This document shows, one piece after another, positions 41,646 through 58,891 of a stretch of 64,000 bases of DNA (position 1 is its first letter; the number at the start of each line of letters is the position of its first letter). Source of the stretch: Treponemataceae bacterium. GTDB lineage: Bacteria > Spirochaetota > Spirochaetia > Treponematales > Rectinemataceae. The translations under genes and the position numbers were made by a program. Under the pieces are notes generated by a model, which made no database searches, was not told the origin of the DNA, and saw nothing but the letters and a program-made list of their open reading frames with translations. The stretch covers positions 320,001-384,000 of the forward strand of contig CAXXVZ010000003.1 in the NCBI GenBank assembly GCA_963678065.2. Reading direction: 5' to 3'.

Positions 41646-42602
41646 ATGACGTGCAAAGGGATCCGCGACGCGCTCACGCGCAGCTGGGGCATCATCGCGA
41701 TGCTGGTCGCCCTGAACGCCTTTTTCAGCATCGTCTCTCCTTTCTTTTTTACGGCCTACAACTTTGTCAGCATGCTGCACCATGCGGCCTTCATGATGAT
41801 CATGGCAACCGGCATGGTGATGGTGATAGCCACTGGCGGGATCGACGTCTCGATCGGATCGAACATGGCGTTCACCGGCATGGTGGTGGCGAATCTTCTC
41901 GTGAAGGGTGTCCCGATCCCGCTCGCCATTCTCCTCGGGCTCGGACTGGGCACGCTGATCGGGGCGATCAACGGGACCTTCATCGCGAGACTGCGTCTGC
42001 AGCCCCTCATCGTCACTCTGGCCATGCTCAGCATCTTCCGGGGGTCCACTCTTGTGATCTCCGCCGGTTACGCCGTGGCCGGACTTCCGGAAGGGTTCCT
42101 CGACGTCTTCGCCGGCTCCGGGATGATCCAGAACAGTGTGTACATCGGGATCGGCGTCGCCCTCGTCGGTGCCTTAGTCCTGTCACAGAGTCCTTTCGGC
42201 CTGTACGCCCGCGCGGTCGGCAGCAATGAGGAATGCACCTATGTATGTGGAATCGACACGCGGCGGATCAAGGTAATCATCTACAGTGTTCAGGGCGCTC
42301 TCGCCGCCCTCGCTTCGCTGACATTCATGGCTTCCGTGGACGCAGCCGAGCCTTCCGCCGGACTCTCTACCGAATGGATGGAGGCGATCGCGGCCGCCAT
42401 TCTGGGGGGAAACCATCTCTCCGGCGGCAAGGCGCGGATCTTCGGAATGGTCATCGGAACCATGATACTCAGCACGATCCGGAGCGGCCTGAATGTCGTT
42501 CGCGTGCCTCCGGCCTATCAACAGGTTGTCATCGGCCTCGTGTTGGTGACCACAGTGATAGCGGATTCGCTCCGCTCCAAGCGGCGCATGGCGCTGGCAT
42601 AG
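41646..42602 (+). CDS. Sugar ABC permease
   Basis: GGIDVSIGS, PLIVTLAM, EAIAAAILGG..LSGG. Confidence 0.9.
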   Translation: MTCKGIRDALTRSWGIIAMLVALNAFFSIVSPFFFTAYNFVSMLHHAAFMMIMATGMVMVIATGGIDVSIGSNMAFTGMVVANLLVKGVPIPLAILLGLGLGTLIGAINGTFIARLRLQPLIVTLAMLSIFRGSTLVISAGYAVAGLPEGFLDVFAGSGMIQNSVYIGIGVALVGALVLSQSPFGLYARAVGSNEECTYVCGIDTRRIKVIIYSVQGALAALASLTFMASVDAAEPSAGLSTEWMEAIAAAILGGNHLSGGKARIFGMVIGTMILSTIRSGLNVVRVPPAYQQVVIGLVLVTTVIADSLRSKRRMALA

Positions 42603-42612
42603 GAAAGATCAT

Positions 42613-44130
42613 ATGGAAAATGTATTGCTGCGAATGGAAAAGATCTCCAAGTCCTTTGGCGGTATCCAGGCTCTGCTCAACGTGGACCTCTGTCTGCGCA
42701 GCGGGGAAGTGCTCGGTCTGGTCGGAGAGAACGGCGCGGGCAAGTCCACGCTGATGAAAATCCTTTCCGGCATCGTGCAGGCGGACCGCGGAAAGATCCT
42801 CCTCGATGGAGGAGAGACGGCGATCGCCAGTCCGAGCGATGCGCAGAAAATGGGAATAGCGATGATCCCGCAGGAGCTGCTTCTTGTGCCTGAGCTCTCC
42901 GTCGCGCAGAACCTCTTCCTCGGTCACGAGTTGTGCAGCAATGGCGGGCTCCTCAACAAGAAGAGAATGTGCGAGAAGACCGAGGAGATCCTCTCGAGCC
43001 TGGACAGCGCGTATATCCGCGCGGACGCGCTTGTCGGCGAGCTCCCGAAGGCCGACCAGCAGATCGTTGCCATCGCTCGCCGGCTACTTCAGAAGGGCCG
43101 GATTTTCATTATGGATGAGCCCACAGCCGCCCTCACGGGCAAGGAGACTGAGACACTCTTCGGGATCATCCGGAGGATCAGCGCCAGCGGCTGTTCAACC
43201 ATCTATATCTCTCATCGGCTGGAGGAGGATCTGGAGATTTGCGACCGCTTTACGGTCCTGCGGGACGGTGAGGTGGCTCAGGACTTCCCGAATGCTCCTG
43301 AGGTGGACACGCAAACCCTCGTGTATCACATGGTCGGAAGCCGCATCGGTGACGAGTTTCCCCATACCGCCGCGCGGAGGGGAAACGAAGTACTCCGGGT
43401 CAATCGACTTGCCTTCCGTACCTACCAGGGCGCTCTTGTGAAGGACGTCGACTTCTCCCTCCACAAAGGGGAGGTGGTCAGCATCACCGGGCTCGTGGGG
43501 GTCGGAAAGACCGAGCTGGGTCAGACCCTTATGGGCCTGCGCAAGCGGATCGGCGGCTCTCTGTCCCTCGACGGGGCGCAGACAGTTATTCAGTCGCCGA
43601 TGGACGCCGTGCGGCATGGGATCGGGTATGTCAGCGAGGACCGGAGGGATGAGGGCCTCGTGCTCGCCCTGGAAAGTAAGTATAATATGACATTGAGCTG
43701 CCTGAGGAAAATCTCCACCGCCTCGGTGCTCTCCTCCAGCCGCGAGAAGAGGCTCGTGTCGACGTTCATGGACCGGCTGAGCATGAAAGCCCAGTACCTC
43801 GAGATGGAAGCCCAGCAGCTGAGCGGCGGAAACCAGCAAAAGATAGTCATCCTGAGACAGATCATCAGCGACGCGCGGATTATTCTCCTCGACGAACCGA
43901 CAAAGGGGATCGACGTGGGGGCCAAGAGCGAAGTATCCCGCATCATCGGGGAGCTGAGCCAGGAAGGGAAGGCCATCCTGATCTTGTCTTCCGAGCCCCG
44001 CGAGGTGCTCGGTATCAGCGATGTCATCTATGTCCTGACCACTCGGGGGATGCAGGGTCCTTTCATGCGGGGAAATCTGACCTATTCCCAGCTGATGGCG
44101 ATCGAGCTCGGGCAGACTCGCGGAGAATAA
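42613..44130 (+). CDS. Sugar ABC ATP-binding protein
   Basis: GENGAGKST, MDEPTAAL, LSGGNQQK, LDEPTKGIDVGAK. Confidence 0.92.
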   Translation: MENVLLRMEKISKSFGGIQALLNVDLCLRSGEVLGLVGENGAGKSTLMKILSGIVQADRGKILLDGGETAIASPSDAQKMGIAMIPQELLLVPELSVAQNLFLGHELCSNGGLLNKKRMCEKTEEILSSLDSAYIRADALVGELPKADQQIVAIARRLLQKGRIFIMDEPTAALTGKETETLFGIIRRISASGCSTIYISHRLEEDLEICDRFTVLRDGEVAQDFPNAPEVDTQTLVYHMVGSRIGDEFPHTAARRGNEVLRVNRLAFRTYQGALVKDVDFSLHKGEVVSITGLVGVGKTELGQTLMGLRKRIGGSLSLDGAQTVIQSPMDAVRHGIGYVSEDRRDEGLVLALESKYNMTLSCLRKISTASVLSSSREKRLVSTFMDRLSMKAQYLEMEAQQLSGGNQQKIVILRQIISDARIILLDEPTKGIDVGAKSEVSRIIGELSQEGKAILILSSEPREVLGISDVIYVLTTRGMQGPFMRGNLTYSQLMAIELGQTRGE

Positions 44131-44185
44131 TCCCGCAGGGCGTGTTCCGAGTACAGGGTCTATGTATCGGGAGGGTGTACAAGCA

Positions 44186-45190
44186 ATGCAGAATAGAATT
44201 TCCCTTTCGCGGTTCCACCTGGAGCTGCTTTTCCCCATCGTTGTCGTCGTAGTCGGACTGACTATCGCCTCTCCTCACTTTATGAGTTTCCAGAATTTCG
44301 TGAATGTGGGCAACCAGATCGCGATCAACGTCATTATCGCCCTCGGGATGACTCTCCTTGTCACGGGCGGAGGGATCGATCTTTCCGTCGGCTCCAATGT
44401 CGCTCTGACGGGGGTCATCGTCGCCCAATTCTTCCAGGCGGGGGGACAGGGAGCCGGCGCGGTGTTCCTCGCGATCCTGATCGGTCTGGGAGTGGGGGTG
44501 ACGATAGGAGTCATCAACGGTTTGATCGTCTCGCTCCTCGATGTCCCGCCGTTCATCTGCACACTCGGGACAATGACGGCAATTCGCGGAGTGGCTCTCA
44601 TCGCCTCCGACGGTCGCCCGATCATGGGCATGCCGGACGCATTCCTGAACGTTTTCTATGGCTTTTGGGGAGGAATCCCGAAGCCGGTCATCACGGCCGT
44701 CATTCTTTCGATCCTCATTGCTTTCATTTTCAACAGGACTACCTTTGGCCGGAAGGTAAAGGCCATAGGCGGCAACGAACGCTGCGTCAGAGTCTGCGGC
44801 ATCAATATCGTCCTCATAAAAATCCTGATGTACGGCTTCGTAGGCGGCCTCGCCGGGATGGCCGGGCTCGTGCTCACCACGACGATGGCGACTGCCGAGC
44901 CGCTTGCGGGCACATGGTATGAGCTTGAGGCCGTCGCGGTAGTAGTCATGGGTGGAACCCTTCTGAAGGGCGGGAAAGGAACTATTGTCGGGACATTGCT
45001 TGGCGCCTTGCTGCTGGGCTTGGTGCGGAACGGGCTCAATCTTCTGAGTGTGCATGCCACGTATCACACCCTTGTCGTCGGGCTGCTTATTCTGTTCTCC
45101 GTTGTGATTTCCAGCGATGCTTTCGGGGGTGCCGGGCGGAGAGTGTGGGATCGCATGCGAGGGCAGGCCAAATTTTCGTCTGAGCGATAA
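44186..45190 (+). CDS. Sugar ABC permease
   Basis: GGIDLSVGS, VPPFICTLG, YELEAVAVVVMGG. Start is uncertain (44162 or 44186). Confidence 0.88.
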   Translation: MQNRISLSRFHLELLFPIVVVVVGLTIASPHFMSFQNFVNVGNQIAINVIIALGMTLLVTGGGIDLSVGSNVALTGVIVAQFFQAGGQGAGAVFLAILIGLGVGVTIGVINGLIVSLLDVPPFICTLGTMTAIRGVALIASDGRPIMGMPDAFLNVFYGFWGGIPKPVITAVILSILIAFIFNRTTFGRKVKAIGGNERCVRVCGINIVLIKILMYGFVGGLAGMAGLVLTTTMATAEPLAGTWYELEAVAVVVMGGTLLKGGKGTIVGTLLGALLLGLVRNGLNLLSVHATYHTLVVGLLILFSVVISSDAFGGAGRRVWDRMRGQAKFSSER

Positions 45191-45220
45191 ATAAACCAAA
45201 GCAAAAGAAAGGAGACAGTC

Positions 45221-46312
45221 ATGGCACACTATTTGGACACGGAATTCAGCAAACACGGGCTCCTCTCACGCGTCGGGGATCCCGCGCAGATCGCGCGCGC
45301 GGTGCCGGTCACTCTCGCCGGAGGCAAGGCCGAGGGAGTCGCCGCGGTCCAGCTCAGCACAGGGTCCGGACTGGAGTTCACCGTGCTTCCCGGAAGGGGA
45401 ATGGACATACCCTTCGCTTCATACAACGGCCGTTCCCTGGGGTTTTTCTCCGGCACAGGCATCACTTCACCCGCTTACTACGAGGAGCCGGGTTTGGGGT
45501 GGCTGCGAAGCGCATACTTTGGCCTACTCACGACCTGCGGCATCGTCTCGAGCGGCTTCCCCGATGTCGAGGGAGAGAAGTCCTACGGCCTGCACGGCAG
45601 GGTCTCGAACGCGGCCGCAGAGGATGTCTCGGTTTCCCAGGATTGGGAGGGAGATGAGTATGTCCTGTCGGTACAGGGAAAGATCAGGGAAGCCTGCGCC
45701 TTTAATGAGAATATGCGACTGAAACGGAAGGTAGAAACCCGCCTGGGATGGGATAAGCTGGTCATCCACGACATCATCGAGAACAACGGATTCGAGCCAC
45801 AGCCGCTCATGATGATCTACCATTTCAATTTCGGTTACCCCCTCCTTGGCCCTGGCGCGGAAGTCGTCGGCCCCATCATCAAGAAGGAAGCGCGGGACGA
45901 GGAGGCATGTAAGGATCGCGGGATTGAGGAGAGCCTGTCTTTCCCGGAGCCCCAGGCTGATTACCGCGAGAAAGTTTTCTTCTACAGCCTTGGAGCCGAC
46001 GCAAAAGGGGATACATTCATATCTCTGCTGAATCAGGATATCGGGGACGGTACTCCCCTCGGCATCGTGATGCGCTTCAACAGGAATGAGTTGCCACGGT
46101 TCACACACTGGAAGATGACAGGGCAGGGCTTCTACGTGACGGGGCTCGAGCCGGGCACAGTAGGCCCTCTCGGGCGCAAAAAGGAGCGCGAGCGCGGCTG
46201 TCCTATGCTCGCGGGGCAGGGGTCCTGGCCGATCACCATAGAGTTCGAAGTCCTTCACGATGTCGCGGCCTTCCAGAGGCTGAGGGATGAGGCGGAGACT
46301 CTGAAGAAATAG
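45221..46312 (+). CDS. Aldose 1-epimerase-like protein (DUF4432 family)
   Basis: GSGLEFTVLPGRGMDI, GLLTTCG, YGLHGRVSN, YHFNFGYPLL, TGLEPGT. Confidence 0.8.
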   Translation: MAHYLDTEFSKHGLLSRVGDPAQIARAVPVTLAGGKAEGVAAVQLSTGSGLEFTVLPGRGMDIPFASYNGRSLGFFSGTGITSPAYYEEPGLGWLRSAYFGLLTTCGIVSSGFPDVEGEKSYGLHGRVSNAAAEDVSVSQDWEGDEYVLSVQGKIREACAFNENMRLKRKVETRLGWDKLVIHDIIENNGFEPQPLMMIYHFNFGYPLLGPGAEVVGPIIKKEARDEEACKDRGIEESLSFPEPQADYREKVFFYSLGADAKGDTFISLLNQDIGDGTPLGIVMRFNRNELPRFTHWKMTGQGFYVTGLEPGTVGPLGRKKERERGCPMLAGQGSWPITIEFEVLHDVAAFQRLRDEAETLKK

Positions 46313-46425
46313 TCGGCTGCACGTGTGGCGGTGGAGTTTGGTGTTTTTCTGTGGCAAGCGGCAGAAGGCGGTTGCCGCAAAATGGATCACTATCGTCCTG
46401 AAGAGGAACTTAAGGAGGCAGGAAC

Positions 46426-47922
46426 ATGAAGAGGTATGGGCTTCTCATCGACAATGAGCTGTGTGAGCCGGAGGGTGGGCGATACTTTATCTCGAGCGAC
46501 CCTTCGAACGGCGAACCCATCGCGGAGTTCGCCCAGGCCGGTCCCGGCGACGTCCGAGCCGCCTGCGCCGCCGCGAGAGCTGCCTTTGAGAGCGGTTGGG
46601 GCCGGATGGACCCCGACGACCGCGCGGAGCTCATGCACAGGGCCGCCGCAGGGATGAGGCGGAGGCAGCAGGAACTCGCCGAGCTCGAGTCCCGCGACAC
46701 CGGCAAGCCGATACGCGAGAGCGCAGGCTTCGATATACCTTTCTCCATTCTCGCCTTCGACTACTTCGCCGATCTGGGCCGCGAGGTTCTCGGGCATGTC
46801 ATCCCCGTCAAAAACGAGCTCAAGAAAGAATACTTCGACTTTGTGACCTACGAGCCCTACGGCGTCGTCGCGGTCATCAGCCCCTACAATTTTCCCCTCC
46901 ACCTTCTGACGCGGAGCCTCTGCCCGGCCCTCGCCGCGGGAAATACGGCTGTGCTCAAGGCCTCGTCGATGACGCCGGCCACCACCGCGCTGCTCGGGGA
47001 GATACTCGTCGACGCAGGCTTCCCTCCCGGCGTCATCAACGTTGTCTCAGGGGCGGGCTCCACCGTCGGCGAATCTCTCGCCTCCGACCGGGACGTGGGT
47101 GTTATCGCATTCACGGGTTCCGAGGCCGTGGGCCGGAGGCTCATGGAGCTCTCCGCGCGCTCGCCCATAATCAAGAAGACAGTGCTGGAACTCGGCGGGA
47201 AGGGGCCGTACATCGTCGAGCCCGACTGTGACCTCGACGAGGCCGCCGACGCCGCGGTCACAGGCCTGGCTTTCAATCAGGGCGAAGTCTGCTGCGCGAT
47301 GACCCGGCTCATCCTCCACGAGTCGATCTACGAGGACTTCCTCACGAGGCTCGCGTCGCGGCTTGACGCGCTGGTCATAGGGCCGCCCCTCGACCCCGCG
47401 ACACAGATCGGATCACTCGTGAACGCGGCTCAGCTCGAGCGCGTAGACGCCTATGTGCGGGCTGCGATCGGGCGCGGCGCCAGGCTTGTATGCGGCGGAG
47501 AGCGTTATGCCATACCGCCCTGCGACAAAGGGAGTTTTTACCGGCCTACAGTCCTCGACCGCCTTGCGGAGGTCGAGCCTTGTTGGCGCGAGGAGATCTT
47601 CGGTCCCGTCCTCGTCGCGAAACCCTACCGTGAGCTCAAAGAGGCCGTGTCAATGGCCAACGACAGCGATTTCGGCCTTGGCGCGAATCTCTTCACGCGC
47701 GACTACCGCAAGGCCTATTGGGCGTCAAAACGTCTCAACGCCGGCTCGGTCTGGGTCAATGTCAATAACGGCGCCCAAATGAACGCTCCCTTCGGGGGCA
47801 ACAAGAACAGCGGGATGGGCAGGGAATATGGCGTCTTTGGCCTCCACGAATACCTCCGGGCCAAGAACAACTGCTGGAACGTGGGCATCGATCCGCTCGC
47901 CGCGCCTGGCGCGCGGGACTAG
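46426..47922 (+). CDS. NAD(P)-dependent aldehyde dehydrogenase
   Basis: PYNFP, FTGSEAVG, LELGGK, catalytic FNQGEVCCA, EEIFGPV, PFGGNKNSG. Confidence 0.92.
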   Translation: MKRYGLLIDNELCEPEGGRYFISSDPSNGEPIAEFAQAGPGDVRAACAAARAAFESGWGRMDPDDRAELMHRAAAGMRRRQQELAELESRDTGKPIRESAGFDIPFSILAFDYFADLGREVLGHVIPVKNELKKEYFDFVTYEPYGVVAVISPYNFPLHLLTRSLCPALAAGNTAVLKASSMTPATTALLGEILVDAGFPPGVINVVSGAGSTVGESLASDRDVGVIAFTGSEAVGRRLMELSARSPIIKKTVLELGGKGPYIVEPDCDLDEAADAAVTGLAFNQGEVCCAMTRLILHESIYEDFLTRLASRLDALVIGPPLDPATQIGSLVNAAQLERVDAYVRAAIGRGARLVCGGERYAIPPCDKGSFYRPTVLDRLAEVEPCWREEIFGPVLVAKPYRELKEAVSMANDSDFGLGANLFTRDYRKAYWASKRLNAGSVWVNVNNGAQMNAPFGGNKNSGMGREYGVFGLHEYLRAKNNCWNVGIDPLAAPGARD

Positions 47923-48201: not shown

Positions 48202-48295
48202 TATTCGATTTTTTGGAAATCCAGTTTGATTTTTTCCTGTCCGGGGCCCGAAACGGGGCAATCGGAAGCATCAGGAACTGATGCAAGGAGGTTTC

Positions 48296-49312
48296 ATGGC
48301 ACCTGTCAATGTGGGCATAATCGGAGCGGGACGGATCGGAAAGATCCATGCCTCCAACATCGTGTATTACATGCCCCAGGCGAAGGTAAAGACCATCGCG
48401 GATGTCAACCTGACTCCCGCAATCGAGGAATGGGCCGCCGGTCTCGGCATCCCCGTCGCGACGAAGGACCCCGAGTCGATTTTTTCTGATCCCGAGATTT
48501 CCGTCGTTCTCGTCTGCTCGTCCACCGACACGCACGCGGATTTCGTCATCAAGGCCGCCAAAGCGGGAAAGCACATTTTCTGCGAAAAACCAGTCGATCT
48601 GACAGTCGCCAAAGTCAAGGCAGCGCTCGCCGCTGTCGCCGCGGCCAAGGTGAAGCTCCAGGTCGGGTTCAATCGCCGGTTCGATCACAACTTCGCGAAG
48701 GTCCGCGAACTCGTGGCCTCGGGAAGCATCGGCGATCCGCACGTCATCAAGATCACCTCCCGCGATCCTGCGCCGCCGCCACCCGCCTATGTGGCTGTCT
48801 CCGGTGGTATCTTCCTCGACATGACCATCCATGATTTCGACATGGCCCGCTTCCAGGCCGGCAGCGATGTCGTCGAAGTCTACGCGGCGGGCGCCGTCCT
48901 CGTCGATCCCGAAATCGGGAAAGCGGGGGACATCGACACCGCCATCATTACACTGAAATTCGCGAACGGCGCGATCGGTGTCATCGACAATTCCCGCAAG
49001 GCGGCCTACGGTTACGATCAGCGCGTCGAAGTTTTCGGCTCGAAAGGCGCGGCGGCCGCCGAGAACGACGCCGCCAGCACCGTGAAGCTCTCCACCGAAT
49101 CGGGTGTAACGGGCGAGAAGCCCCTCTACTTCTTCCTTGAGCGCTACAAGGAAGCCTTCATCTCTGAAATGCGCGCCTTCCTCGACGCTGTCGCCGGCGA
49201 CAAGCCGGTTTCTGTCACCGGCGAGGACGGCCTGCAGGATCTTCTCGTCGCCCTCGCGGCAAAGAAATCCGTCGCGGAGAAGCGGCCTGTCAGGCTCTCC
49301 GAAATCGCGTAA
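48296..49312 (+). CDS. iolG: myo-inositol 2-dehydrogenase
   Basis: GIIGAGRIG, HIFCEKP, GFNRRFD, ITSRDP, SGGIFLDMTIHDFDMARF, YGYDQRVEVFG. Start ATG 48296 after AAGGAGG. Confidence 0.93.
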   Translation: MAPVNVGIIGAGRIGKIHASNIVYYMPQAKVKTIADVNLTPAIEEWAAGLGIPVATKDPESIFSDPEISVVLVCSSTDTHADFVIKAAKAGKHIFCEKPVDLTVAKVKAALAAVAAAKVKLQVGFNRRFDHNFAKVRELVASGSIGDPHVIKITSRDPAPPPPAYVAVSGGIFLDMTIHDFDMARFQAGSDVVEVYAAGAVLVDPEIGKAGDIDTAIITLKFANGAIGVIDNSRKAAYGYDQRVEVFGSKGAAAAENDAASTVKLSTESGVTGEKPLYFFLERYKEAFISEMRAFLDAVAGDKPVSVTGEDGLQDLLVALAAKKSVAEKRPVRLSEIA

Positions 49313-49370: not shown

Positions 49371-50186
49371 ATGCAAACCAAGCATCCGGCCGCCTTCGCG
49401 GCCGGCTATGAAGCGATAGTCGACCGCGCCGGACCGGATGCGGACATGCTCATGGATTTCGGTATTGTCACCCTCGGCTCAGGGGCGAGCTGGGAATCCG
49501 GTCCTGGACTCGAGAGAGCCGTTCTCTTCATGGGCGGAGAGGCGCGTCTCGAATGGGGAGAACCTGGAGCCCCGGCTGCTGCGACCGTATCCCGGCGAAG
49601 TCTTTTCGATGAAAATCCGGCCGTTCTCCATCTCGACAGAAGAATGACCTGCAGAGTGACGGCGGGCGGGCGGGGCGCTGAACTCTCCGTGACGATGACC
49701 GAGAACGCCAAGACCTTTCCTGCGAAGCTCTACGCCCCGGAAGAGTGCCGGAGCGAAGAGCGCGGGAAAGGCACGATGCGCGAAACGAGCACCCGGATTG
49801 TGAGGACTGTCTTCGACGATTCCAACGCCCCCGACTCGAACCTCGTCATAGGCGAAGTGGTCGGGGCACCGGGGAAATGGTCGAGCTATCCACCCCATCA
49901 TCATCCGCAGCCCGAGATTTACCACTACCGCTTCCTGCCTGGCCAAGGTTTCGGCCTCACCGCTATCGGGGACCGCGCCTACATACTCTCAGACAAGGAT
50001 ACCATCCTCATCCGCGACACCGAGGATCATCCGCAGGTGACCGCCCCCGGCTATGCGATGTGGTACCTCTGGGTGATCCGGCATCTCGACGCTGATAGGT
50101 ACATCACCCCCCGCTTTACCGAACAGCATGCATGGGTGGCCGGACCCGATGCCGACATCTGGCTTCCTCCTTCGGAACGGACCTGA
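49371..50186 (+). CDS. iolB: 5-deoxy-glucuronate isomerase
   Basis: RRSLFDE, LVIGEV...GKWSSYPPHHHPQPEIYHYRF, HPQVTAPGYAMWYLW. Start ATG 49371 after AAGGAG. Confidence 0.92.
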   Translation: MQTKHPAAFAAGYEAIVDRAGPDADMLMDFGIVTLGSGASWESGPGLERAVLFMGGEARLEWGEPGAPAAATVSRRSLFDENPAVLHLDRRMTCRVTAGGRGAELSVTMTENAKTFPAKLYAPEECRSEERGKGTMRETSTRIVRTVFDDSNAPDSNLVIGEVVGAPGKWSSYPPHHHPQPEIYHYRFLPGQGFGLTAIGDRAYILSDKDTILIRDTEDHPQVTAPGYAMWYLWVIRHLDADRYITPRFTEQHAWVAGPDADIWLPPSERT

Positions 50187-50221
50187 GGTCCATAGGGCGC
50201 CACAGACAACAGGAGATGATT

Positions 50222-52087
50222 ATGGAAACCATAAAGCTGACAGTCGGCCAGGCTCTCGTCCGTTTCCTCGACAACCAGTACATCGAGCTGGACGGCGAAG
50301 AAAGCAAATTCGTCGAAGGTGTCTTCGGCATATTTGGTCACGGAATCGTCGTCGGACTGGGCGAGGCGCTCGCGGCGCCGGGGCATGGTCTTACGTTTTA
50401 TCAGGGAAAGAACGAACAGGGTATGACGCATGCCGCCATCGGTTTTGCCAAACAGAATGACTGCAGGAGGATCATGGCCGTGACGACATCCATCGGCCCG
50501 GGAGCCCTCAACATGGTCACTGCGGCAGGCACAGCCACCGTCAACCACGTTCCTGTCCTCCTTCTGCCGGCGGACGCCTACGCCTGCAGGCAGCCCGATC
50601 CTGTTCTTCAGCAGGTCGAGACCCCGGATGACTACACAAACACCGCCAACGATGCCTTCAGGGCGGTATCCCGGTACTGGGACAGAGTGAACAGGCCGGA
50701 ACAGCTCATGACGGCCATGATCAATGCCATGCGCGTATTGATCGATCCGGTGCAGGCCGGGGCCGTGACCATCGCGCTACCCCAGGATGTACAGGGCGAG
50801 GCCTACGACTATCCCGTCGAGTTCTTCGCAAAGCGAGTCCACCACATCGAGAGGCGCATCCCTTCCGAGGCTGCGGTGGAGCGCGCGGTCGCCATGATCC
50901 AGGCGGCGTCAAAGCCTCTCGTCATCTGCGGCGGAGGCGTGCGCTACTCCCGTGCGGGAGCCGAACTCGCGGCGTTCTGCAGGAAATTCCACATTCCCTT
51001 CGGCGAGACACAGGCAGGCAAGGGCGTCATCCTCTGGGACAATCCCTACAATCTTTCAGGAATCGGACTTACCGGAAGTCAGGCCGCGAACCGCATCGCC
51101 AAGGCCTCCGACCTCGTCATCGCGGTCGGAACACGGCTTGGAGACTTCACCACCTGCTCCAAGTGGCTTTTTCAGAATCCGGACTGCAGATTCCTCGGCA
51201 TCAACGTCGCTTCCTTCGATGCATACAAGATGAACGCCGAACCGATGATCGCCGACGCGAAGCTCGCGCTCGCGGCGATCACCCGATCTCTCGCGAGGAA
51301 AGGATATCATTCCGCGTGGGGTGACGCGATCGAGCGCGAGCGCGCACTTTGGAAGGCGGAAGTGGACAGGTTGTACTCCGAAGATGTGCCCGAGGGGCTT
51401 TCCCAGGCTCGCGCGCTCGGGGAGCTGAACGACAGGCTCCTTCCGCGCGACGCGGTCTGCATCTCCGGCTCCGGATCGATCCCAAGCGACATGCAGCGCG
51501 TTTGGCGCGTCCGTGTTCCGGGGACCTACCATATGGAGTACGGATTCTCCTGCATGGGCTACGAAGTGGCGGCCGGTCTCGGCGTCAAGATAGCGGAGCC
51601 GGACCGGGAAGTCGTCGTCATCGTTGGGGACGGCGCCTACACCATGCTGCACACCGAACTTCTGACCGCCGTGCAGGAGGGCAGGAAGATAATCGTCGTC
51701 GTGCTTGACAATTCCGGATTCCACTGCATCGACAATCTCCAGAACAGCCAGGGCATCGAACATTTCGCCAACGAGTGGAGGAGCCGCGACCCGGCTACCG
51801 GCAGGCTCACCGGGCCTACGGTCAAAGTCGATTTCGCCAAGAACGGCGAGAGCTGGGGCGCTGTCGGTCTTCGTGCGCGCACGGTCGACGAGTTCAGAAA
51901 GGCGGTCAGACGGGCGCTCAAGGAAAAAGGACCTGTCGTCATCGACGCCAAGGTCGCTCCCAAGTCCATGACCAAAGGGTACGAATCCTTCTGGCGCGTG
52001 GGCACCGCGGAAGTCTCGCACAATCCGGCCGTCGTGGCGGCAGCAGCCGTCGTCAAGGCCGAAGTTGCCAAATCCAGAAAATTCTAG
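50222..52087 (+). CDS. iolD: 3D-(3,5/4)-trihydroxycyclohexane-1,2-dione acylhydrolase
   Basis: LTVGQALVRFL.NQY, GIFGHG, RQPDPVLQQ, YHMEYGFSCMGYE and the ThDP motif GDGAY...DN. Confidence 0.95.
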   Translation: METIKLTVGQALVRFLDNQYIELDGEESKFVEGVFGIFGHGIVVGLGEALAAPGHGLTFYQGKNEQGMTHAAIGFAKQNDCRRIMAVTTSIGPGALNMVTAAGTATVNHVPVLLLPADAYACRQPDPVLQQVETPDDYTNTANDAFRAVSRYWDRVNRPEQLMTAMINAMRVLIDPVQAGAVTIALPQDVQGEAYDYPVEFFAKRVHHIERRIPSEAAVERAVAMIQAASKPLVICGGGVRYSRAGAELAAFCRKFHIPFGETQAGKGVILWDNPYNLSGIGLTGSQAANRIAKASDLVIAVGTRLGDFTTCSKWLFQNPDCRFLGINVASFDAYKMNAEPMIADAKLALAAITRSLARKGYHSAWGDAIERERALWKAEVDRLYSEDVPEGLSQARALGELNDRLLPRDAVCISGSGSIPSDMQRVWRVRVPGTYHMEYGFSCMGYEVAAGLGVKIAEPDREVVVIVGDGAYTMLHTELLTAVQEGRKIIVVVLDNSGFHCIDNLQNSQGIEHFANEWRSRDPATGRLTGPTVKVDFAKNGESWGAVGLRARTVDEFRKAVRRALKEKGPVVIDAKVAPKSMTKGYESFWRVGTAEVSHNPAVVAAAAVVKAEVAKSRKF

Positions 52088-52099: not shown

Positions 52100-52987
52100 A
52101 TGAGCGGAAAAATCAGACTTGCCATAGCGCCCATCGGCTGGACGAACGATGACCTTCCGGAGCTCGGCGGCCAGATTCCCTTCGAACAGTGCGTCAGCGA
52201 GATGGCTCTCGCCGGATTCGAGGGCAGTGAGGTCGGCAACAAGTACCCCAAGGATCCTGCCGTACTCAACAAGGCTCTCGCGCTTCGCGGGCTCACCATC
52301 TGCAACGCCTGGTTCTCGAGCTTCCTCACCACGAAGCCCCTGAAGGAAGTCGAAAAGGAATTTATCGCCCACCGCGACTTTCTCTACGCGGTCGGCGCGC
52401 GGGTCATCGGCGCCGCCGAGCAAGGTAATTCCATTCAAGGCAAGGATATTTCAGTTTTTGGAGCGAAACCTGTTTTCTCCGCCGACGAGTGGAAAAAGCT
52501 TGGCGATGGGCTGAACCACCTCGGTGAGCTCGCGAACGAGAAGGGCATGAAGCTCACCTACCACCATCACATGGGCACGGGCGTCCAGACCGCCTCCGAA
52601 ATCGATAAACTCATGGAGCTGACGGAGCCAGGGCTCTGCGACCTCCTCTACGACACGGGGCATCTCGTGTTCTCGGGCGAGGACCACCTGGCCATACTCG
52701 AAAAATATGCGTCCCGCATCAAGCACGTTCATCTCAAGGACCTGCGCCCCGCGGTCGTGGCCAAGGTCAAAGCCGAGGGGTGGAGCTTTCTCAAAGCCGT
52801 CAAATCCGGAGCCTTCACTGTGCCAGGCGATGGCTGCATCGATTTTGTCCCTGTCTTCGGCGCACTCAAGAAATCGGGCTACGAGGGCTGGTGGGTCGTC
52901 GAGGCCGAACAGGACCCCGCCCTCGCCAATCCTTTCGAGTATGCGGTGAAGGCCCGAACCTATATCCGGGAGAAAGCAGGCATCTGA
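52100..52987 (+). CDS. iolE: myo-inosose-2 dehydratase
   Basis: [46 protein letters not shown]. Confidence 0.95.
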
Positions 52988-53147: not shown

Positions 53148-54176
53148 ATGGCGAAGGTGCGAGTGGGAGTGGCGGGATACGGAGTGATAGGGCAGAGGCT
53201 GGCGGACGGGGTGGCGCTGCAGGGGGACATGGAGCTGGTGGGTGTGGCGGACGTTGCGCCGACGCTGTCGGTGCGAGCGCTGCGCGAGCGGGGGATGCCA
53301 TACAAATTCTACACAGCACTTCCTGAGAAGCGAGCGGAGCTGGATAAGGCGGGCATTCCGATAACGGGCACGCTCGAGGAGCTCGTGCAGAGCGTGGACG
53401 TGATGCTGGACGCGACGAGCGCGGGGGTTGGGGCGAAGAACAAGGAACTGTACGCGAAATACGGGAAGAAGGGGATATTCCAGGGAGGGGAGAAGAACTC
53501 GGTGGCGGATGTGTTCTTCCACGGGTACGCGAACTACGAGAAGGGGTTGGGGGCGCAGTTTCTGAAGTTGACGAGCTGCAACACGACGGGGTTGATCCGG
53601 GCGGTGGACTGTCTTGACCGGGAAGTCGGGGTCGAGAAAGTGGCGATCACGATCATCCGCCGCGTGGCCGATCCGGGGGACTACCACCGGGGTCTGACGA
53701 ACGCGCTGCAACTTGAGCATGCGCCGAGCCATCAGGCGCTCGACCTGATGACGATCATGCCGCAGGTGGACGCGACGGGGATCCTTGTGCACACGCCGGT
53801 GACGCACGGGCACATCATCACGGTATTGGCGACGACGAAGAAGACGGTGAGCCCGGAGAGCACGCGCGAGATGTTGGCGGAGCATCCGCGGATCAGGATG
53901 GTGAGTCTGGCGGAAGGGTTTTTGGGGAACGCGAGCTTTTTCCGGTACGCGCGGGATCTGGGGAATCCGCGAGGGGACATGTACGAGATCGGGTGCTGGG
54001 AAGACTCGATCGTGATGAGCGGGAAGGATGTGATGTTTGCGATCAACATACCGCAGGAGTCGGTGGTGATACCGGAGAATATGGACGGGGTGCGGGCGTG
54101 CATGGGGATGCAGTCCGACAGGCTGGAAGCGACGGGGATGACGAACAAGTATCTGGGCATCGGGAAGTGGCGCTGA
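53148..54176 (+). CDS. Class II (archaeal-type) glyceraldehyde-3-phosphate dehydrogenase homologue
   Basis: GYGVIGQRLAD.V..Q.DM.LVGV, IFQGGEK, catalytic SCNTTGL, IRRVADP, ES.VIPEN.D.VRA: all class II GAPDH hallmarks. Confidence 0.88.
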   Translation: MAKVRVGVAGYGVIGQRLADGVALQGDMELVGVADVAPTLSVRALRERGMPYKFYTALPEKRAELDKAGIPITGTLEELVQSVDVMLDATSAGVGAKNKELYAKYGKKGIFQGGEKNSVADVFFHGYANYEKGLGAQFLKLTSCNTTGLIRAVDCLDREVGVEKVAITIIRRVADPGDYHRGLTNALQLEHAPSHQALDLMTIMPQVDATGILVHTPVTHGHIITVLATTKKTVSPESTREMLAEHPRIRMVSLAEGFLGNASFFRYARDLGNPRGDMYEIGCWEDSIVMSGKDVMFAINIPQESVVIPENMDGVRACMGMQSDRLEATGMTNKYLGIGKWR

Positions 54177-54201
54177 GGGCGCGGGGGACAAGGAGAAGCC
54201 G

Positions 54202-55497
54202 ATGAGCGGAGCCCGACTGAAGATGAAGCCCGTGACCGAGTGTGCGCTTGCAGGGAAGACGGTGTTGTTTCGGCCTGACATCAACTCGCCGATCGATCCG
54301 GAGACGAAGCGGATCGTGAACAGGAACCGGCTGGAGAAGACGGTGCCGACCTTGAATCTGCTTTTGGAGGGTAAAGCGAAGGTGGCGCTGATAGCGCATC
54401 AGGGCGACACGCTGGATTATCAGAATCTGATACCGATGGAGGAGCACGCGGCGATCCTGACGAAGCTGACGGGGAAGAAGGTGGGCTACATCGACGATGT
54501 GTGCGGACCTGCGGCCTGTCAGGCGGTGAGCACGCTTGCGCCCGGTGAGGCGGTGATACTGGGGAACCTGCGCTACCTGAGTGAGGAGATCTCGAGCTTC
54601 GAGAGTGCGGTGAAGCTGAAGCCGAGCCAGATGCTGGACACGTGGCTGGTGAGGAAGCTTGCGCCACTTGCGGATCTGTACGTGAACGACGCGTTTGCGG
54701 CGGCACACCGGAACGCGCCCTCGATGGTGGCGTTCCAGGAGCTTGTGCCGACAGCGGCGGGGATACAGCTGATGGACGAGTATACGGCGCTGAAGTCGGT
54801 GATGGACAGTCCGAAGCGTCCCTGCGTGTACGTGCTGGGAGGAGCGAAGATATCGGACGCCTTCGACATGATGAGGAAGGTGCTGACAGACGGGAGTGCG
54901 GACAGAATCCTGACGGCGGGCGTGACAGGGATGGTGATGCACATAGCGCGGGGAGTGGACCTCGGGCCTGCGGTGATGAAGTTTCTGGTCGACAAGGGAT
55001 TGGAGGGGTTCATTCCGGAAGCGAAGGCTCTTCTTGCCGAGTTTGGGGACAGGTATGTGTTGCCGGTGGACATGGCATACGAGTGCGCGGAACCCGGATC
55101 GATCGGCGTGCGCGCGGAAGCCCCGATCGCGGAGCTGCCGAGGGACAGGATCTTTCCGGACATCGGGCACGCGACGATCGCGCTGTTCAAGGAGCACATT
55201 GCTCAGGCGGGCTCGGTGTTCGTGAACGGGCCGGCTGGGGTGTACGAGGATGCGCGCTGGGAGGCGGGGACGAAGGAAGTGTGGCGCGCGATCGCGGAGG
55301 CTCCCGGGTACACGGTGGTGGGAGGAGGGGACACGATCAGCGCGGCGACCCGCTTTACGGACCTGTCGAAATATGGGTATGTATGTACGGGTGGCGGCGC
55401 GATGGTGCGCTTTCTCGCGGGCAAGAAGCTCCCTCTCATCGAGGCGATGGAGAAGGCCTTCGAGCGCAACCTGAACGCAGCTATCAACCGACACTAG
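54202..55497 (+). CDS. Phosphoglycerate kinase homologue, archaeal-like
   Basis: FRPDINSP, AHQG, NLRY, NDAFAAAHRN.PS, LGGAKISD, NGPAGVYE, GGGDT, CTGGGA. Confidence 0.88.
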   Translation: MSGARLKMKPVTECALAGKTVLFRPDINSPIDPETKRIVNRNRLEKTVPTLNLLLEGKAKVALIAHQGDTLDYQNLIPMEEHAAILTKLTGKKVGYIDDVCGPAACQAVSTLAPGEAVILGNLRYLSEEISSFESAVKLKPSQMLDTWLVRKLAPLADLYVNDAFAAAHRNAPSMVAFQELVPTAAGIQLMDEYTALKSVMDSPKRPCVYVLGGAKISDAFDMMRKVLTDGSADRILTAGVTGMVMHIARGVDLGPAVMKFLVDKGLEGFIPEAKALLAEFGDRYVLPVDMAYECAEPGSIGVRAEAPIAELPRDRIFPDIGHATIALFKEHIAQAGSVFVNGPAGVYEDARWEAGTKEVWRAIAEAPGYTVVGGGDTISAATRFTDLSKYGYVCTGGGAMVRFLAGKKLPLIEAMEKAFERNLNAAINRH

Positions 55498-55510: not shown

Positions 55511-56965
55511 ATGAAACTGGATCTCTCTCTCAAGGATCTTTCGAAGGCCTTTCCCGTGGATCTGACGCCCGACCAGAAAGCAAAGGCGCAAACCCTCTTC
55601 CTGAAGAAGCTCTCGATTTCGGCGCATGAGTTTTTCGGCGGCAAGATGCAGACCGTACCCATGTGTGGCCTGTGGGGCTTCAACTGGTTCAACGTCTGGT
55701 ACACGCCTGGCGTCTCTGCGGTCTCGACGACGATCCGCGACAACAACGACGCGTCGTTCGCGCTGTCGAACCGCGGAAACCTCGTCGCGGTCGTGTCCGA
55801 TTCCACTCGCGTTCTCGGTGACGGCGACTGCACGCCTCCCGGAGGACTCGGCGTCATGGAGGGCAAAGCCTTCCTCATGAAGTACCTCGGAGGCGTCGAC
55901 GCTGTGGCGCTGTGCGTGGATTCCCGCGGACCTGACGGTAAACACGATCCGGACAAGATCATCGAGTTCGTGAAGATGCTGCAGCCGAGCTTCGGAGCCG
56001 TAAACCTCGAGGACATCAGCCAGCCGAATTGCTTCAAGGTCCTGGACGAACTCCGCGAGAGCTGCGACATTCCGGTCTGGCACGACGACGCCCAGGGGAC
56101 GGCCTGCGTGACTCTCGCGGGACTCCTCAACGCCCTGAAGCTCGCGGGAAAGAAGCTCGGAGACGCGAAGATCGTGCTGCTCGGCGCCGGAGCGTCGAAC
56201 ACGACGATTGCCCGGCTGATCCTCGCGGACGGCGGCGACCCCGCGAAGATGATCATGTTTGACTCGAAAGGCGGTCTGCACCTGGGCAGGGCCGATATCG
56301 AGAAGGATAAGAGGAACTACCGCAAGTGGGAGCTCTGTCAGAGAACGAACCCCGGCAGGGTCCAGACGGAGGCCGAGGCTATCGCGGGGGCGGATGTCCT
56401 CATCGCGCTCTCGACACCCGGACCGGACACGGTGAAGCGCGAGTGGGTACACTCGATGGCGCCGAAGTCCATCGTCTTTGCCTGCGCGAACCCTGTGCCG
56501 GAGATCTGGCCGCATGCGGCGAAGGAAGAGGGCGCCTACATCGTGGCGACCGGCCGTGGCGACTTTCCGAATCAGGTCAACAACTCCGTCTGCTTCCCCG
56601 GCCTCCTCAAAGGGGCCCTGCTGGTGCGCGCCCGCAAAGTTACAGACGGAATGGCGATCCGGTGTTCGCACTCGATCGCGGACTTTGCGGAGAAGCGCGG
56701 GATCAGCGAAAACGACATCACGGCGCGGATGGACGAGTCAGAGGTCTTCGCGATCCAGGCTGCCGACGTCGCCATGAAGGCGATAGAGGAAGGAGTCGCG
56801 CGCGTGATCATGACCTGGGATGAAGTTTACAACAGGGCGAAGGCGGACATCGCGGCCTCCCGGAAACTGACAGAGGACCTCATGAGGCTGGGACACATTA
56901 AGGAGCCGCCTGAGTCGATGCTGCAGGAAGCCCTCGATTGGGCCATAGCGCAGGTCAGGAAATAA
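55511..56965 (+). CDS. NAD(P)-dependent malic enzyme (short type, no PTA domain)
   Basis: YTPGV, VMEGKA, NLEDISQPNCF, HDDAQGT, GAGAS, ANPVPEI, TGRGDFPNQVNN. Confidence 0.92.
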   Translation: MKLDLSLKDLSKAFPVDLTPDQKAKAQTLFLKKLSISAHEFFGGKMQTVPMCGLWGFNWFNVWYTPGVSAVSTTIRDNNDASFALSNRGNLVAVVSDSTRVLGDGDCTPPGGLGVMEGKAFLMKYLGGVDAVALCVDSRGPDGKHDPDKIIEFVKMLQPSFGAVNLEDISQPNCFKVLDELRESCDIPVWHDDAQGTACVTLAGLLNALKLAGKKLGDAKIVLLGAGASNTTIARLILADGGDPAKMIMFDSKGGLHLGRADIEKDKRNYRKWELCQRTNPGRVQTEAEAIAGADVLIALSTPGPDTVKREWVHSMAPKSIVFACANPVPEIWPHAAKEEGAYIVATGRGDFPNQVNNSVCFPGLLKGALLVRARKVTDGMAIRCSHSIADFAEKRGISENDITARMDESEVFAIQAADVAMKAIEEGVARVIMTWDEVYNRAKADIAASRKLTEDLMRLGHIKEPPESMLQEALDWAIAQVRK

Positions 56966-57019: not shown

Positions 57020-58300
57020 ATGAAGCTGGATATTCCGTATTATGGAAAACACATACCACTCGTGCTGCCGGAGGGTGTACCGGTCGATATCCTTGAGCCG
57101 AACGACCTGGCGGGAGAAGACGGTATCCCCGGCACAGATGCTGCGGCAGCGGCGATCCGTGTGAACACGGCAGTGAATTCGCCCTTGGATGCGCTGCCGC
57201 TTCACGAGTTCCTGGCGGGAGGGGAGAAGATCCTCGTCATCGTGAACGACGCGACACGGCCGACCCCGACTCGGATCGTCCTCGACGCAATCGCGGATGA
57301 GCTCGCGAAAGCGCAGGCTCGCTTCATTGTCGCGACAGGCGCTCACCGGGCCCCGACCGAAGAAGAGTACCGCCAGATATTCGGAGCTCACTACGACGCA
57401 TTCCGTTCCCGTTGTACCGCTCACGTCGCGCGCGACGAATCGAGCCTCGTCGACCTCGGCGCGACGCGCAACGGAACGCCGATCCTCCTCAACAGGGCTG
57501 TCTTCGAGGCCGACCGCGTGGTCGCGATCGGGTCGGTGGAGCCGCACTATTTCGCGGGCTACACCGGCGGACGGAAGGCCTTCCTCCCCGGCGTTGCGGG
57601 CTTCAGGACCATCGAGGCGAACCACAAACTGGCTCTGTCCGACATGGCGCGGGCCTGCGAGCTTGCGCACAACCCCGTGAGCCAGGACATGGACGATGCC
57701 CTCAATCTCATAGCGGTGCCGGTGTTTTCCATAATGACAGTGCTCGACAAAGACCAGAACCTCGCATGGTGCTCGGCCGGGGATATCCGCTCCTCCTTCG
57801 ACGAGGCGGTGAGCAAGGCCGACGCTATTTTCACCGTGCCGATACTGAGGAAAGCGGACCTTGTGGTCTCTGTGGCGCGTTTTCCGATGGACATCGATCT
57901 CTACCAGTCGCAGAAGGCGATCGACAATGGTTCGCTGGCCCTGAAGGACGGAGGGACGCTGATCATGGTTTCGTCCTGCCGCGATGGGGTGGGGGACAGG
58001 GCTTTTCTCGACCTGATGGGCAGAGCGAAGGGCCCTGAGGACGCTCTTGCGCGGATCGGAGAGGGTTACCGGCTTGGCTATCACAAGGCGGCGAAGCTTG
58101 CCCTCATAGCGCAGCGCGCCTCCATACGGGCCGTCTGCGAGCTTGATCCTGCGCTCCTGTCGAAAGCGTTCATAGCGTCCTGCCCGGACCTGCAGAGGGC
58201 GGTGGACGATATTCTCGCCGCAGCGGGTCCCGGCGCCACCGTTGCCTTTCTCCCCGACGGAAGCGTCACTGTGCCGAGGTTCGTGACGCGGATCCCGTAA
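57020..58300 (+). CDS. LarA-family nickel-pincer 2-hydroxy-acid racemase/epimerase
   Basis: VNDATRPTP, ATGAHR, EPHYFAGYTGGRK, NH, DLYQSQKA motifs. Confidence 0.88.
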   Translation: MKLDIPYYGKHIPLVLPEGVPVDILEPNDLAGEDGIPGTDAAAAAIRVNTAVNSPLDALPLHEFLAGGEKILVIVNDATRPTPTRIVLDAIADELAKAQARFIVATGAHRAPTEEEYRQIFGAHYDAFRSRCTAHVARDESSLVDLGATRNGTPILLNRAVFEADRVVAIGSVEPHYFAGYTGGRKAFLPGVAGFRTIEANHKLALSDMARACELAHNPVSQDMDDALNLIAVPVFSIMTVLDKDQNLAWCSAGDIRSSFDEAVSKADAIFTVPILRKADLVVSVARFPMDIDLYQSQKAIDNGSLALKDGGTLIMVSSCRDGVGDRAFLDLMGRAKGPEDALARIGEGYRLGYHKAAKLALIAQRASIRAVCELDPALLSKAFIASCPDLQRAVDDILAAAGPGATVAFLPDGSVTVPRFVTRIP

Positions 58301-58303: not shown

Positions 58304-58332
58304 TTGTGTTTTGGACGCGGCGGAACTATACT
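58304..58332 (+). promoter_or_regulatory. Putative leaderless promoter of the hypothetical membrane protein gene
   Basis: TTGTGT-N17-TATACT-N7-ATG (58340). Confidence 0.5.
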
Positions 58333-58339
58333 CTTCAGT

Positions 58340-58891
58340 ATGAGAGAGAAGGCCGGCTTCGAGTTGCGGACGAAGACTCTCCTTGTCGTCTTCGGGCTCT
58401 GCGCCTTTCTCGCTGTATTTGCGGCAGTCGATACGGCCGAGTATTACCGGGCATGGAGCCAGGCCCGGAACTGGACAGATGTCCAGAAATCCGTAGCTCC
58501 CGCCGTGGACGCGATGAGAATGTATGCACTCATTCTGGCGGCTCTGGTTCTCGATACGGCAGTTATTGCGCTATCTTTCGCGGGCGGCCTTGCGCTCGGA
58601 ATATCCACGACGACCGAGAGCCGGCTCGCTTCCAGGGTGACATACTTTCTCTGTGTAGCCTCCGTCCTCGCGGGTCTCTGCTTTGCGATTGTCATGTCTT
58701 TCTATCGCGTCAACCTTGGACTGCGCATGGTCCTGAAGGGCCCCATTTTCGATTACACTATGAGGATACAGCCGCCTGTCGCTCTGGCCATGGCAGCTTT
58801 TCCCGTATTGACGGTCTTTCTGCCGTTCATTCGGGGGAAACGGCCGCTCAAAGGACGAAGAGCCGGGCAATTCCATACTGAAACAGGATAG
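58340..58891 (+). CDS. Hypothetical membrane protein
   Basis: About four hydrophobic segments; no family recognised. Confidence 0.55.
   Translation: MREKAGFELRTKTLLVVFGLCAFLAVFAAVDTAEYYRAWSQARNWTDVQKSVAPAVDAMRMYALILAALVLDTAVIALSFAGGLALGISTTTESRLASRVTYFLCVASVLAGLCFAIVMSFYRVNLGLRMVLKGPIFDYTMRIQPPVALAMAAFPVLTVFLPFIRGKRPLKGRRAGQFHTETG

Follow-up and report, generated by a model that had tools for sequence, protein, structure and literature searches.

Operon and gene content

The window is a stretch of 64,000 nucleotides from a Treponemataceae bacterium (CAXXVZ010000003.1, positions 320,001 to 384,000). It lies on a 2.4 Mb contig (C3; other contigs of this genome are numbered likewise) and has a G+C content of about 60%. 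It carries an inositol (iol) operon that also holds two relatives of lower-glycolysis enzymes: a type II (archaeal-type) glyceraldehyde-3-phosphate dehydrogenase (GAPDH) paralog, here called GAPII, and an archaeal-like phosphoglycerate kinase (PGK) paralog, here called PGKL. The original prediction, made from the letters of the window, held that changed residues mark this pair as a non-glycolytic, NAD-linked module that converts an aldehyde to an acyl phosphate and then to an acid plus ATP. That conclusion is supported by gene context and by the distribution of the genes, and the residues cited for it lend it little support. Both open reading frames (ORFs) are borne out, at 53148-54176 (342 aa) and 54202-55497 (431 aa), and they are co-directional. 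The operon consists of:

48281..49312, + strand: iolG, myo-inositol 2-dehydrogenase (TIGR04380, 483.4 bits, cut-off 355)
49371..50186, + strand: iolB-like gene of the KduI/IolB family (Pfam KduI, 178 bits)
50216..52087, + strand: iolD, ring-cleaving thiamine diphosphate-dependent acylhydrolase (TIGR04377, 896.5 bits, cut-off 715)
52100..52987, + strand: iolE, inosose dehydratase (TIGR04379, 418.7 bits, cut-off 290)
53148..54176, + strand: GAPII, type II (archaeal-type) GAPDH paralog (NF003251, 402.2 bits; PDB alignments)
54202..55497, + strand: PGKL, archaeal-like PGK paralog (Pfam PGK, 332.1 bits)
55511..56965, + strand: malic enzyme homolog (Pfam Malic_M, 82.9 bits, and malic, 64.6 bits, both above cut-offs)
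57020..58300, + strand: LarA homolog (best family NF052593, malate racemase LarAH6, 371 bits, cut-off 500)

The genes stand in this order, all on the same strand and 13-160 bp apart. The iolB-like product is predicted to be a 5-deoxy-glucuronate isomerase and to yield the ketose 2-deoxy-5-keto-D-gluconate (DKG), and its family is found in 21 of 54 related loci. A scan of 23 ORFs between 33.6 and 63.3 kb of the window found neither the aldolase IolJ nor IolA. Elsewhere the genome has five class II aldolases and four dehydrogenases of the methylmalonate-semialdehyde dehydrogenase (MMSDH)/IolA type. The kinase IolC was found nowhere in the genome at its cut-off (best TIGR04382 score 139.7, cut-off 300); the assembly is 99.94% complete and contains zero N.

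A hydrophobic ORF of 195 aa (58304-58891), with no family match, starts 4 bp past the LarA stop and may be part of the operon. Among the four MMSDH/IolA-type genes, two adjoin split transketolases (C5:1030414-1033717 and C2:241772-247711).

At 95% identity or above, assembled lake-water metatranscriptome contigs (three runs of one study) match parts of the genes for iolG, iolB, iolD, GAPII, PGKL, the malic enzyme and LarA, and one contig of 1606 nt spans the GAPII/PGKL junction. These data come without a DNA carry-over control and several pieces are from a near relative; we take the matches as only a hint and do not count them as proof of expression.

Conservation and distribution

In an initial family search, 4544 of 7999 candidates scored as relatives at E <= 1e-20. 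Cultured carriers include Breznakiella homolactica, Thermoanaerobacterium thermosaccharolyticum, Clostridium aciditolerans and Clostridium magnum DSM 2767 (L039). A contig scan of species-representative genomes yielded 58 loci, 4 of them with PGKL cut at the locus end. The loci come, according to their record titles, from Spirochaetota, Bacillota, Bacteriovoracaceae and Bifidobacteriaceae, and 54 of them have a complete PGKL ORF. Counts over these loci are lower bounds, because many loci end at contig edges. GAPII is adjacent to PGKL in 53 of the 54. Some malate-related gene is present in 37 (LarA in 31/54, malic enzyme in 22/54), two or more iol genes in 26/54 and a transketolase in 22/54 (19 split, 3 full-length). 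Both the GAPII-PGKL pair and its gene neighborhood are thus conserved in four phyla.

The GAPII family is also discrete. In a representative library, two full-length 50%-identity clusters stand at 59-70% identity and the next at no more than 42%. The source genome has no second GAPII copy. Some other genomes have two GAPII-PGKL copies in differing contexts.

The malate end of the module varies between lineages. Both Bacteriovoracaceae loci (L043 and L045) have a gene of the tartrate/D-malate dehydrogenase family (TIGR02089, 501 bits, cut-off 470) and neither LarA nor malic enzyme. Two loci (L037, at 4927-5610, and L044) have a 227-aa gene of the Asp/Glu/hydantoin racemase family after PGKL, in the place of LarA; it may be a cofactor-independent substitute for the malate racemase. 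In three loci (L016, L027 and L031) a second GAPII-PGKL copy follows genes for a sugar ABC transporter and an aldehyde:ferredoxin oxidoreductase; the stretch fetched contains no malate genes, and this second copy may act on another substrate.

Among 301 sampled Spirochaetota genomes, GAPII is present in 11, IolD in 14 and IolC in 11. The 14 IolD-positive genomes divide into 3 with GAPII and no IolC (the source genome, G250 and G175), 10 with IolC and no GAPII, and 1 with neither (G239, whose IolD is cut at a contig end). The GAPII pair and IolC are mutually exclusive in this set. The relatives are not independent, so we give the distribution without a statistical test. G250, a complete genome of the same order, carries GAPII, PGKL, LarA, malic enzyme and the N- and C-terminal transketolase genes on one strand; its iolB-iolD-iolG genes lie 13 kb from there.

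The malate end

The malic enzyme homolog reaches no NCBIfam equivalog; it is predicted to convert L-malate to pyruvate and CO2. The LarA homolog is a predicted nickel-pincer malate racemase acting from D-malate to L-malate. Its top PDB match is Mar2 (6d6z, 222.6 bits), and it keeps the residues aligned with H108, H174, K184 and H200 of LarA and with Q293 and K351 of Mar2, whose catalytic and cofactor roles we take from the accessible text of one paper (PMC7583248).

We collected 23 module-linked LarA proteins. All 10 from Bacillota pass the LarAH6 cut-off (559-600 bits, cut-off 500), and the remaining 13, from spirochaetes and a bifidobacterial metagenome-assembled genome, reach 343-394 bits, again with LarAH6 as their best family. 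The source genome holds five LarA homologs, at 57020-58300 of the window and at C3:600333-601472, C4:502945-503913, C2:113415-114200 and C5:972072-972977.

Transketolase

The module-linked split transketolases (for example those of L007 and L040) form one clade (Shimodaira-Hasegawa-like approximate likelihood-ratio test, SH-aLRT, 99). They carry the motif G(T/S)D(P/A)G...NGGTHMP, versus THDS...EDGPTHQP in the full-length transketolase of the source genome. The altered positions presumably correspond to His461 and Asp469 of E. coli TktA, which bind phosphate. The source genome has about 12 split transketolase pairs and one full-length gene, the latter on the 62-kb contig C1. One of the split pairs (C4:83275-85133) nests in the module clade (SH-aLRT 100).

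The operon around that pair (C4:83150-90733, or 9150-16733 of locus L063) also encodes an RpiB-like isomerase, an aldehyde dehydrogenase of the CoA-acylating type, an ADP-forming ligase resembling SucCD and a transporter of the DASS family. Together these genes look like another route built on transketolase, one that gains ATP via a CoA thioester and not via an acyl phosphate.

GAPII residues and cofactor

GAPII scores above both type II GAPDH cut-offs (NF003251, 402.2 vs 185 bits; TIGR01546, 301.4 vs 232.9 bits). Its closest solved structures are archaeal: P. horikoshii 2czc, M. fervidus 1cf2 and S. solfataricus 1b7g (E 9e-71 to 2e-64). We compared residues through HMMER alignments to the PDB sequences. 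The motifs that had been read by eye hold up. The catalytic SCNT and the RRxADP motif are kept (SCNTT and IRRVADP in the alignments), GAPII has PSHQ where all three archaeal structures have PSHH, and its GVADVAP aligns with GITKTKP (2czc), GVSKTRP (1cf2) and GVAKTSP (1b7g).

In a 57-row GAPII alignment, leaving out rows that lack a residue at the position in question, Asp35 is present in 49/49, Gln196 in 53/53 and the Arg-Arg pair in 52/52. In a wider family set Asp35, Gln196, C144, R171, R172, H195 and H222 are each found in 168/168. D35, Y179, H180, R181, Q196, N273 and P302 are invariants specific to the family. The out-group for this comparison is heterogeneous. It was drawn from 75 full-length representatives, of which the 16 lacking an intact SCNTT were set aside and the other 59 used. 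It has His at position 196 in 54/59 and Gln in 4/59, Lys at the Asp35 position in 25/59 and Asp in 11/59, Arg at the N273 position in 45/59 and His at the P302 position in 45/59.

An acidic residue at the end of beta-2 of a Rossmann fold favors NAD+. Asp35 fits this, and GAPII is probably NAD-linked; the cofactor claim of the original prediction thus agrees with the residue, and the preference itself stays a prediction. In archaeal type II GAPDH a Lys is linked to NADP, according to the accessible text of a review (PMC12041015).

The roles of the other residues rest on the same text of this one review. It describes the phosphate of glyceraldehyde 3-phosphate (G3P) in M. fervidus GAPDH as held by Arg167 and Arg168, places His194 in an anion site made of Ser139, Asn141, Arg167, His193 and His194, and names His219 as the catalytic His (PMC12041015). 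The equivalents of Arg167 and Arg168 (R171 and R172) and of His193 (H195) are retained in GAPII, and H222 is the equivalent of His219. The His-to-Gln change had been taken as the loss of a contact with the phosphorylated substrate. By the roles given in this source, the Gln instead falls in the second anion site, which weakens that claim. Because the Arg-Arg phosphate pair is intact, GAPII could still act on G3P.

PGKL residues and housekeeping genes

PGKL matches Pfam PGK (PF00162) with 332.1 bits (cut-off 27) over profile positions 2-379 of 379. Its top PDB match is P. horikoshii PGK (2cun, 246 bits, E 8e-72), which is also the only archaeal sequence in our comparison. The canonical set consists of 29 spirochaete PGKs from 31 loci, two (L098 and L113) having been removed by an ORF filter.

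We take the basic patch that binds 3-phosphoglycerate (3-PG) to be Arg38, His62, Arg65, Arg122 and Arg170. PGKL retains R43, H66, R124 and R170 of this patch, and the DxN (D26/N28), NLR (NLR124) and AHR (AHR170) motifs are kept, as had been noted. The 'Arg65' position is Asp in 54/54. The AHQGDTLD reading is correct: AHQG-D aligns with HQG-K in P. horikoshii (2cun), HLG-K in S. aureus (4dg5) and HLG-R in T. maritima (1vpe). A basic residue at a shifted position would have explained the change away, and there is none within the loop AHQGDTLDYQNL. In a 55-row PGKL alignment this loop is the same in 54/54 but for one L-to-M. Relative to the 29 canonical PGKs, the DTLDYQNL loop, Y348 and C395 are specific to the PGKL family.

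The Asp does not carry the weight first placed on it. The canonical PGK of the source genome reads SHLGDP where the T. maritima and T. brucei PGKs read SHLGRP. Asp occupies the 'Arg65' position in 6 of the 29 canonical spirochaete PGKs, the source genome's included, and five of these six are the sole PGK match of their genomes. Asp at this position is compatible with a housekeeping PGK. Since canonical enzymes share it, the Arg-to-Asp change is no evidence for an altered substrate, and the original use of it as such does not stand. The case is a caution: a single change that looks decisive by eye is present in housekeeping PGKs too.

An argument from PGK residues alone was dropped as a diagnostic, SHLGDP being present in canonical PGKs. 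An insertion of about 20 residues follows the SHLGDP motif in the three rows inspected (L001, L091 and L093). In the housekeeping PGK of the source genome (L001, C3:981824-983035), the residues past the motif are absent from T. maritima PGK and align with a longer stretch of the T. brucei enzyme.

A canonical pair exists in the genome, a point raised as a check in the original prediction. A class I gap and a pgk adjoin at C3:981824-983721, on the same contig as the window (pgk, 489.9 bits; gap, Gp_dh_C 211.7 bits). PGKL is 30% identical to this canonical PGK, and it is not the glycolytic PGK of the organism.

Proposed pathway

Our best reading, which we consider fairly probable, is that a transketolase cuts DKG to D-malate semialdehyde, which is converted through an acyl phosphate to D-malate with a gain of ATP, and then through L-malate to pyruvate. 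The steps from myo-inositol to DKG would be those of IolG, IolE, IolD and the IolB-like enzyme. Written from its CH2OH end, DKG is CH2OH-CO-CHOH-CHOH-CH2-COO-. Reasoning from structure, it should have the D-threo configuration that transketolase donors need, and it should resemble xylulose-5-phosphate with CH2-COO- in place of CH2-OPO3. From DKG, transketolase would transfer a C2 unit to an acceptor aldehyde, leaving (R)-3-hydroxy-4-oxobutanoate, that is, D-malate semialdehyde. This product, OHC-CHOH-CH2-COO-, would be a D-configured carboxylate analog of G3P.

GAPII would then act as a phosphorylating D-malate-semialdehyde dehydrogenase: Cys144 and His222 would form the thioester, Arg171 and Arg172 would hold the carboxylate, NAD+ would be reduced and D-malyl phosphate would be released. 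PGKL, the predicted D-malyl-phosphate:ADP phosphotransferase, would hand the phosphate to ADP to give ATP and D-malate. The LarA homolog could racemize D-malate to L-malate, and malic enzyme could turn L-malate into pyruvate and CO2. In other genomes a D-malate dehydrogenase could replace the racemase and malic enzyme on the way to pyruvate. The net effect would be zero ATP spent on IolC and one ATP gained. D-malate as the product is supported by the Bacillota racemases that pass the LarAH6 cut-off and by the tartrate/D-malate dehydrogenase gene of the Bacteriovoracaceae.

A number of observations weigh against this pathway. All substrate assignments within the GAPII/PGKL family are predictions, and two of the residue results given above (the intact Arg-Arg pair of GAPII and the Asp shared by PGKL with housekeeping PGKs) fit ordinary glycolytic substrates. 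At the feeding end, the IolB-like protein scores 90 bits with TIGR04378 (cut-off 205), and because this is far under the cut-off its function is a prediction. The operon of the window has no transketolase, and none is present in the fetched stretch of 10 of the 26 iol-containing loci. The module-type split transketolase of the source genome lies in a different operon (C4:83275-85133); its RpiB-like, aldehyde dehydrogenase, SucCD-like and DASS neighbors were sought in the module loci and none was found there.

At the malate end, the LarA homolog falls under the malate racemase cut-off (371 vs 500 bits) and has Y-F at the position of Mar2 Y172-K173. No larB, larC or larE was found genome-wide (PF01969, 0 matches; NF033503, 0 matches; TIGR00268, best 39.8 vs 150), and tblastn of the genome with the verified LarE, LarB and LarC of G250 also gave zero matches. 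Of the 301 sampled Spirochaetota, 108 have LarC; of the 11 GAPII-positive genomes, 5 do.

The distribution has gaps as well. IolD is missing from 8 of the 11 GAPII-positive spirochaete genomes, all eight from one family, and 9 of the 54 loci carry genes of none of the three kinds (iol, malate, transketolase), though six of the nine are contigs shorter than 7 kb. Because of these genomes and bare loci, we think that the pair also serves other feeder routes, possibly with other substrates.

Alternative explanations

The alternative that survives best, itself improbable, keeps the chemistry and gives the pair another anionic aldehyde here: malonate semialdehyde, tartrate or tartronate semialdehyde, or 5-deoxy-glucuronate. 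It would account for the lack of a transketolase in the operon and for pairs without iol genes, including those beside an aldehyde:ferredoxin oxidoreductase (L016, L027 and L031). The tartrate dehydrogenase family gene of L043 and L045 and the genomes with two copies in differing contexts point the same way. It does not account for the malate-specific neighbors in 37 of 54 loci and in the window; a malate racemase and a malic enzyme would be useless for malonate or 5-deoxy-glucarate. The retained IolB-type step from aldose to ketose fits a transketolase that cleaves a ketose.

We regard it as rather less likely still that the pair are ordinary isoenzymes, an extra NAD-linked G3P dehydrogenase and 3-PG kinase that handle triose phosphate flux linked to inositol. 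Both proteins pass their family models; the catalytic Cys and His, the Arg-Arg site and 4 of 5 PGK basic-patch residues are retained, and Asp at the fifth patch position is tolerated in sole-copy PGKs. However, the genome already has a canonical gap-pgk. The operon has no aldolase (five class II aldolases lie elsewhere) and the genome has no IolC at the cut-off, so the inositol operon would not feed triose phosphate. GAPII and IolC exclude each other in IolD-positive genomes, and the neighbors that recur across phyla are malate racemase, malic enzyme and D-malate dehydrogenase, not tpi, eno or pyk. GAPII also departs from archaeal GAPDHs at many invariant positions, such as His194 to Gln (168/168, vs His in 54/59 of the out-group).

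That the pair runs reductively, like aspartate kinase with aspartate-semialdehyde dehydrogenase, with ATP activating malate on the way to a semialdehyde for biosynthesis, is very improbable: the PGK and GAPDH reactions are reversible, and a synthetic malyl-phosphate pathway functions in E. coli going by the accessible text of its report (PMC12104201), but the operon is catabolic with transport and iol genes, Asp35 predicts NAD and not NADPH, and there is no conserved downstream consumer of a semialdehyde.

Comparison with known systems

Canonical inositol catabolism of the Bacillus subtilis type uses IolG, IolE, IolD, IolB, IolC, IolJ and IolA and ends in dihydroxyacetone phosphate and malonate semialdehyde. 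The window resembles it in IolG, IolD and IolE, which are above equivalog cut-offs, and in the IolB-family gene. It differs in that the operon lacks an aldolase and IolA and has GAPII, PGKL, malic enzyme and LarA instead, in a genome without IolC at the cut-off. The predicted products here would be a C2 unit, D-malate and ATP.

The proposed cleavage has a parallel in sulfo-TK sulfoquinovose breakdown, in which a split transketolase encoded in a catabolic operon of anaerobes cuts a non-phosphorylated anionic keto-sugar. That route differs in its sulfonate substrate and in its aldehyde, which is reduced or oxidized via CoA with no acyl phosphate made and used by GAPDH and PGK.

GAPII shares with the archaeal type II GAPDHs (1CF2, 2CZC and 1B7G) the fold family, the catalytic Cys of SCNTT, His219, Arg167/168 and the first His of PSHH. 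Unlike these, it is bacterial and present in addition to a class I gap, and the archaeal enzymes fall in clusters no more than 42% identical to the GAPII family. GAPII further differs in the change of Lys to Asp at the NADP site, in His194 to Gln and in the invariant Y179, H180, R181, N273 and P302, and its predicted substrate would bear a carboxylate instead of a phosphate.

PGKL shares with archaeal (2CUN), bacterial and eukaryotic PGKs the full-length Pfam match, DxN, R43, H66, R124, R170 and the GGAK and GGGD nucleotide motifs. It differs in its invariant loop without a basic residue, in F to Y in GVYE and in S to C before TGGGA. Its gene adjoins malate genes, not glycolytic ones.

Mar2 (LarAH6, 6D6Z) is the nickel-pincer malate racemase of T. 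thermosaccharolyticum (Desguin et al. 2020, PMC7583248, accessible text). It is the top match of the LarA homolog in both PDB and NCBIfam, with the catalytic and cofactor residues, Q293 and K351 kept. The homolog differs in its lower family score (371 vs 500 bits), in Y-F for Y-K after the catalytic His, in GGRK for GGHK and in a genome where larB/C/E were not found. T. thermosaccharolyticum, the host of Mar2, also carries a GAPII, 80% identical (P0103). In the accessible portion of that paper, the main text makes no mention of GAPDH or PGK, and Table S1 lists PGK as a neighbor (3/18) only for the uncharacterized LarA group 4 (PMC7583248).

Aspartate kinase with aspartate-semialdehyde dehydrogenase and the synthetic malyl-phosphate route to 2,4-dihydroxybutyrate likewise pass a C4-dicarboxylate acyl phosphate between a kinase and an enzyme of the GAPDH superfamily. 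Those routes are reductive and act on the distal (C4) carboxyl, whereas the module proposed here would act on the carboxyl next to the hydroxyl, oxidatively and with a yield of ATP. The malyl-phosphate route is described as man-made in the accessible text of its report (PMC12104201).

A full-text literature search (subscription journals lay outside its coverage) found no report that connects either inositol or 2-deoxy-5-keto-gluconate to any of transketolase, malate racemase, malate semialdehyde and malyl phosphate. The repurposed GAPDH/PGK module of an inositol branch is apparently undescribed. We lean, by a small degree, toward a broader view: a widespread, undescribed fermentation of inositol and sugar acids that would pass carboxylate mimics of pentose-phosphate and glycolytic intermediates through a repurposed transketolase, GAPDH and PGK.

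On this view it would be the first natural substrate-level phosphorylation via D-malyl phosphate, and it would provide the physiological source of D-malate that has been missing for the nickel-pincer malate racemases. If the proposed pathway is right, it would explain why malate racemases exist and where D-malate comes from. Two glycolytic enzymes would have been copied and retuned to a carboxylate analog, giving anaerobes of at least four phyla a kinase-free end to inositol breakdown that gains ATP. Thousands of 'type II GAPDH' and 'phosphoglycerate kinase' labels would then be wrong, and natural enzymes would be at hand for malyl-phosphate chemistry, so far served only by protein engineering.

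Other features of the window

A scan for promoters and terminators between 44 and 60 kb gave 3 promoter-like and 14 terminator-like sites, not above shuffled sequence, and an Rfam scan of the same interval gave zero matches at E <= 0.1. Upstream of the operon, 33641-47922 encodes two sugar ABC transporters, an AraC regulator and a second IolG-like dehydrogenase (under the IolG cut-off), together with a TIM barrel resembling xylose isomerase, a DUF4432 protein and a 498-aa aldehyde dehydrogenase. These genes may serve to take up and convert other isomers of inositol or related cyclitols. Farther away, on the - strand, 6233-9043 encodes a 936-aa protein made up almost wholly of ankyrin repeats (Ank_2, 363 bits), which is unusual in a free-living bacterium.

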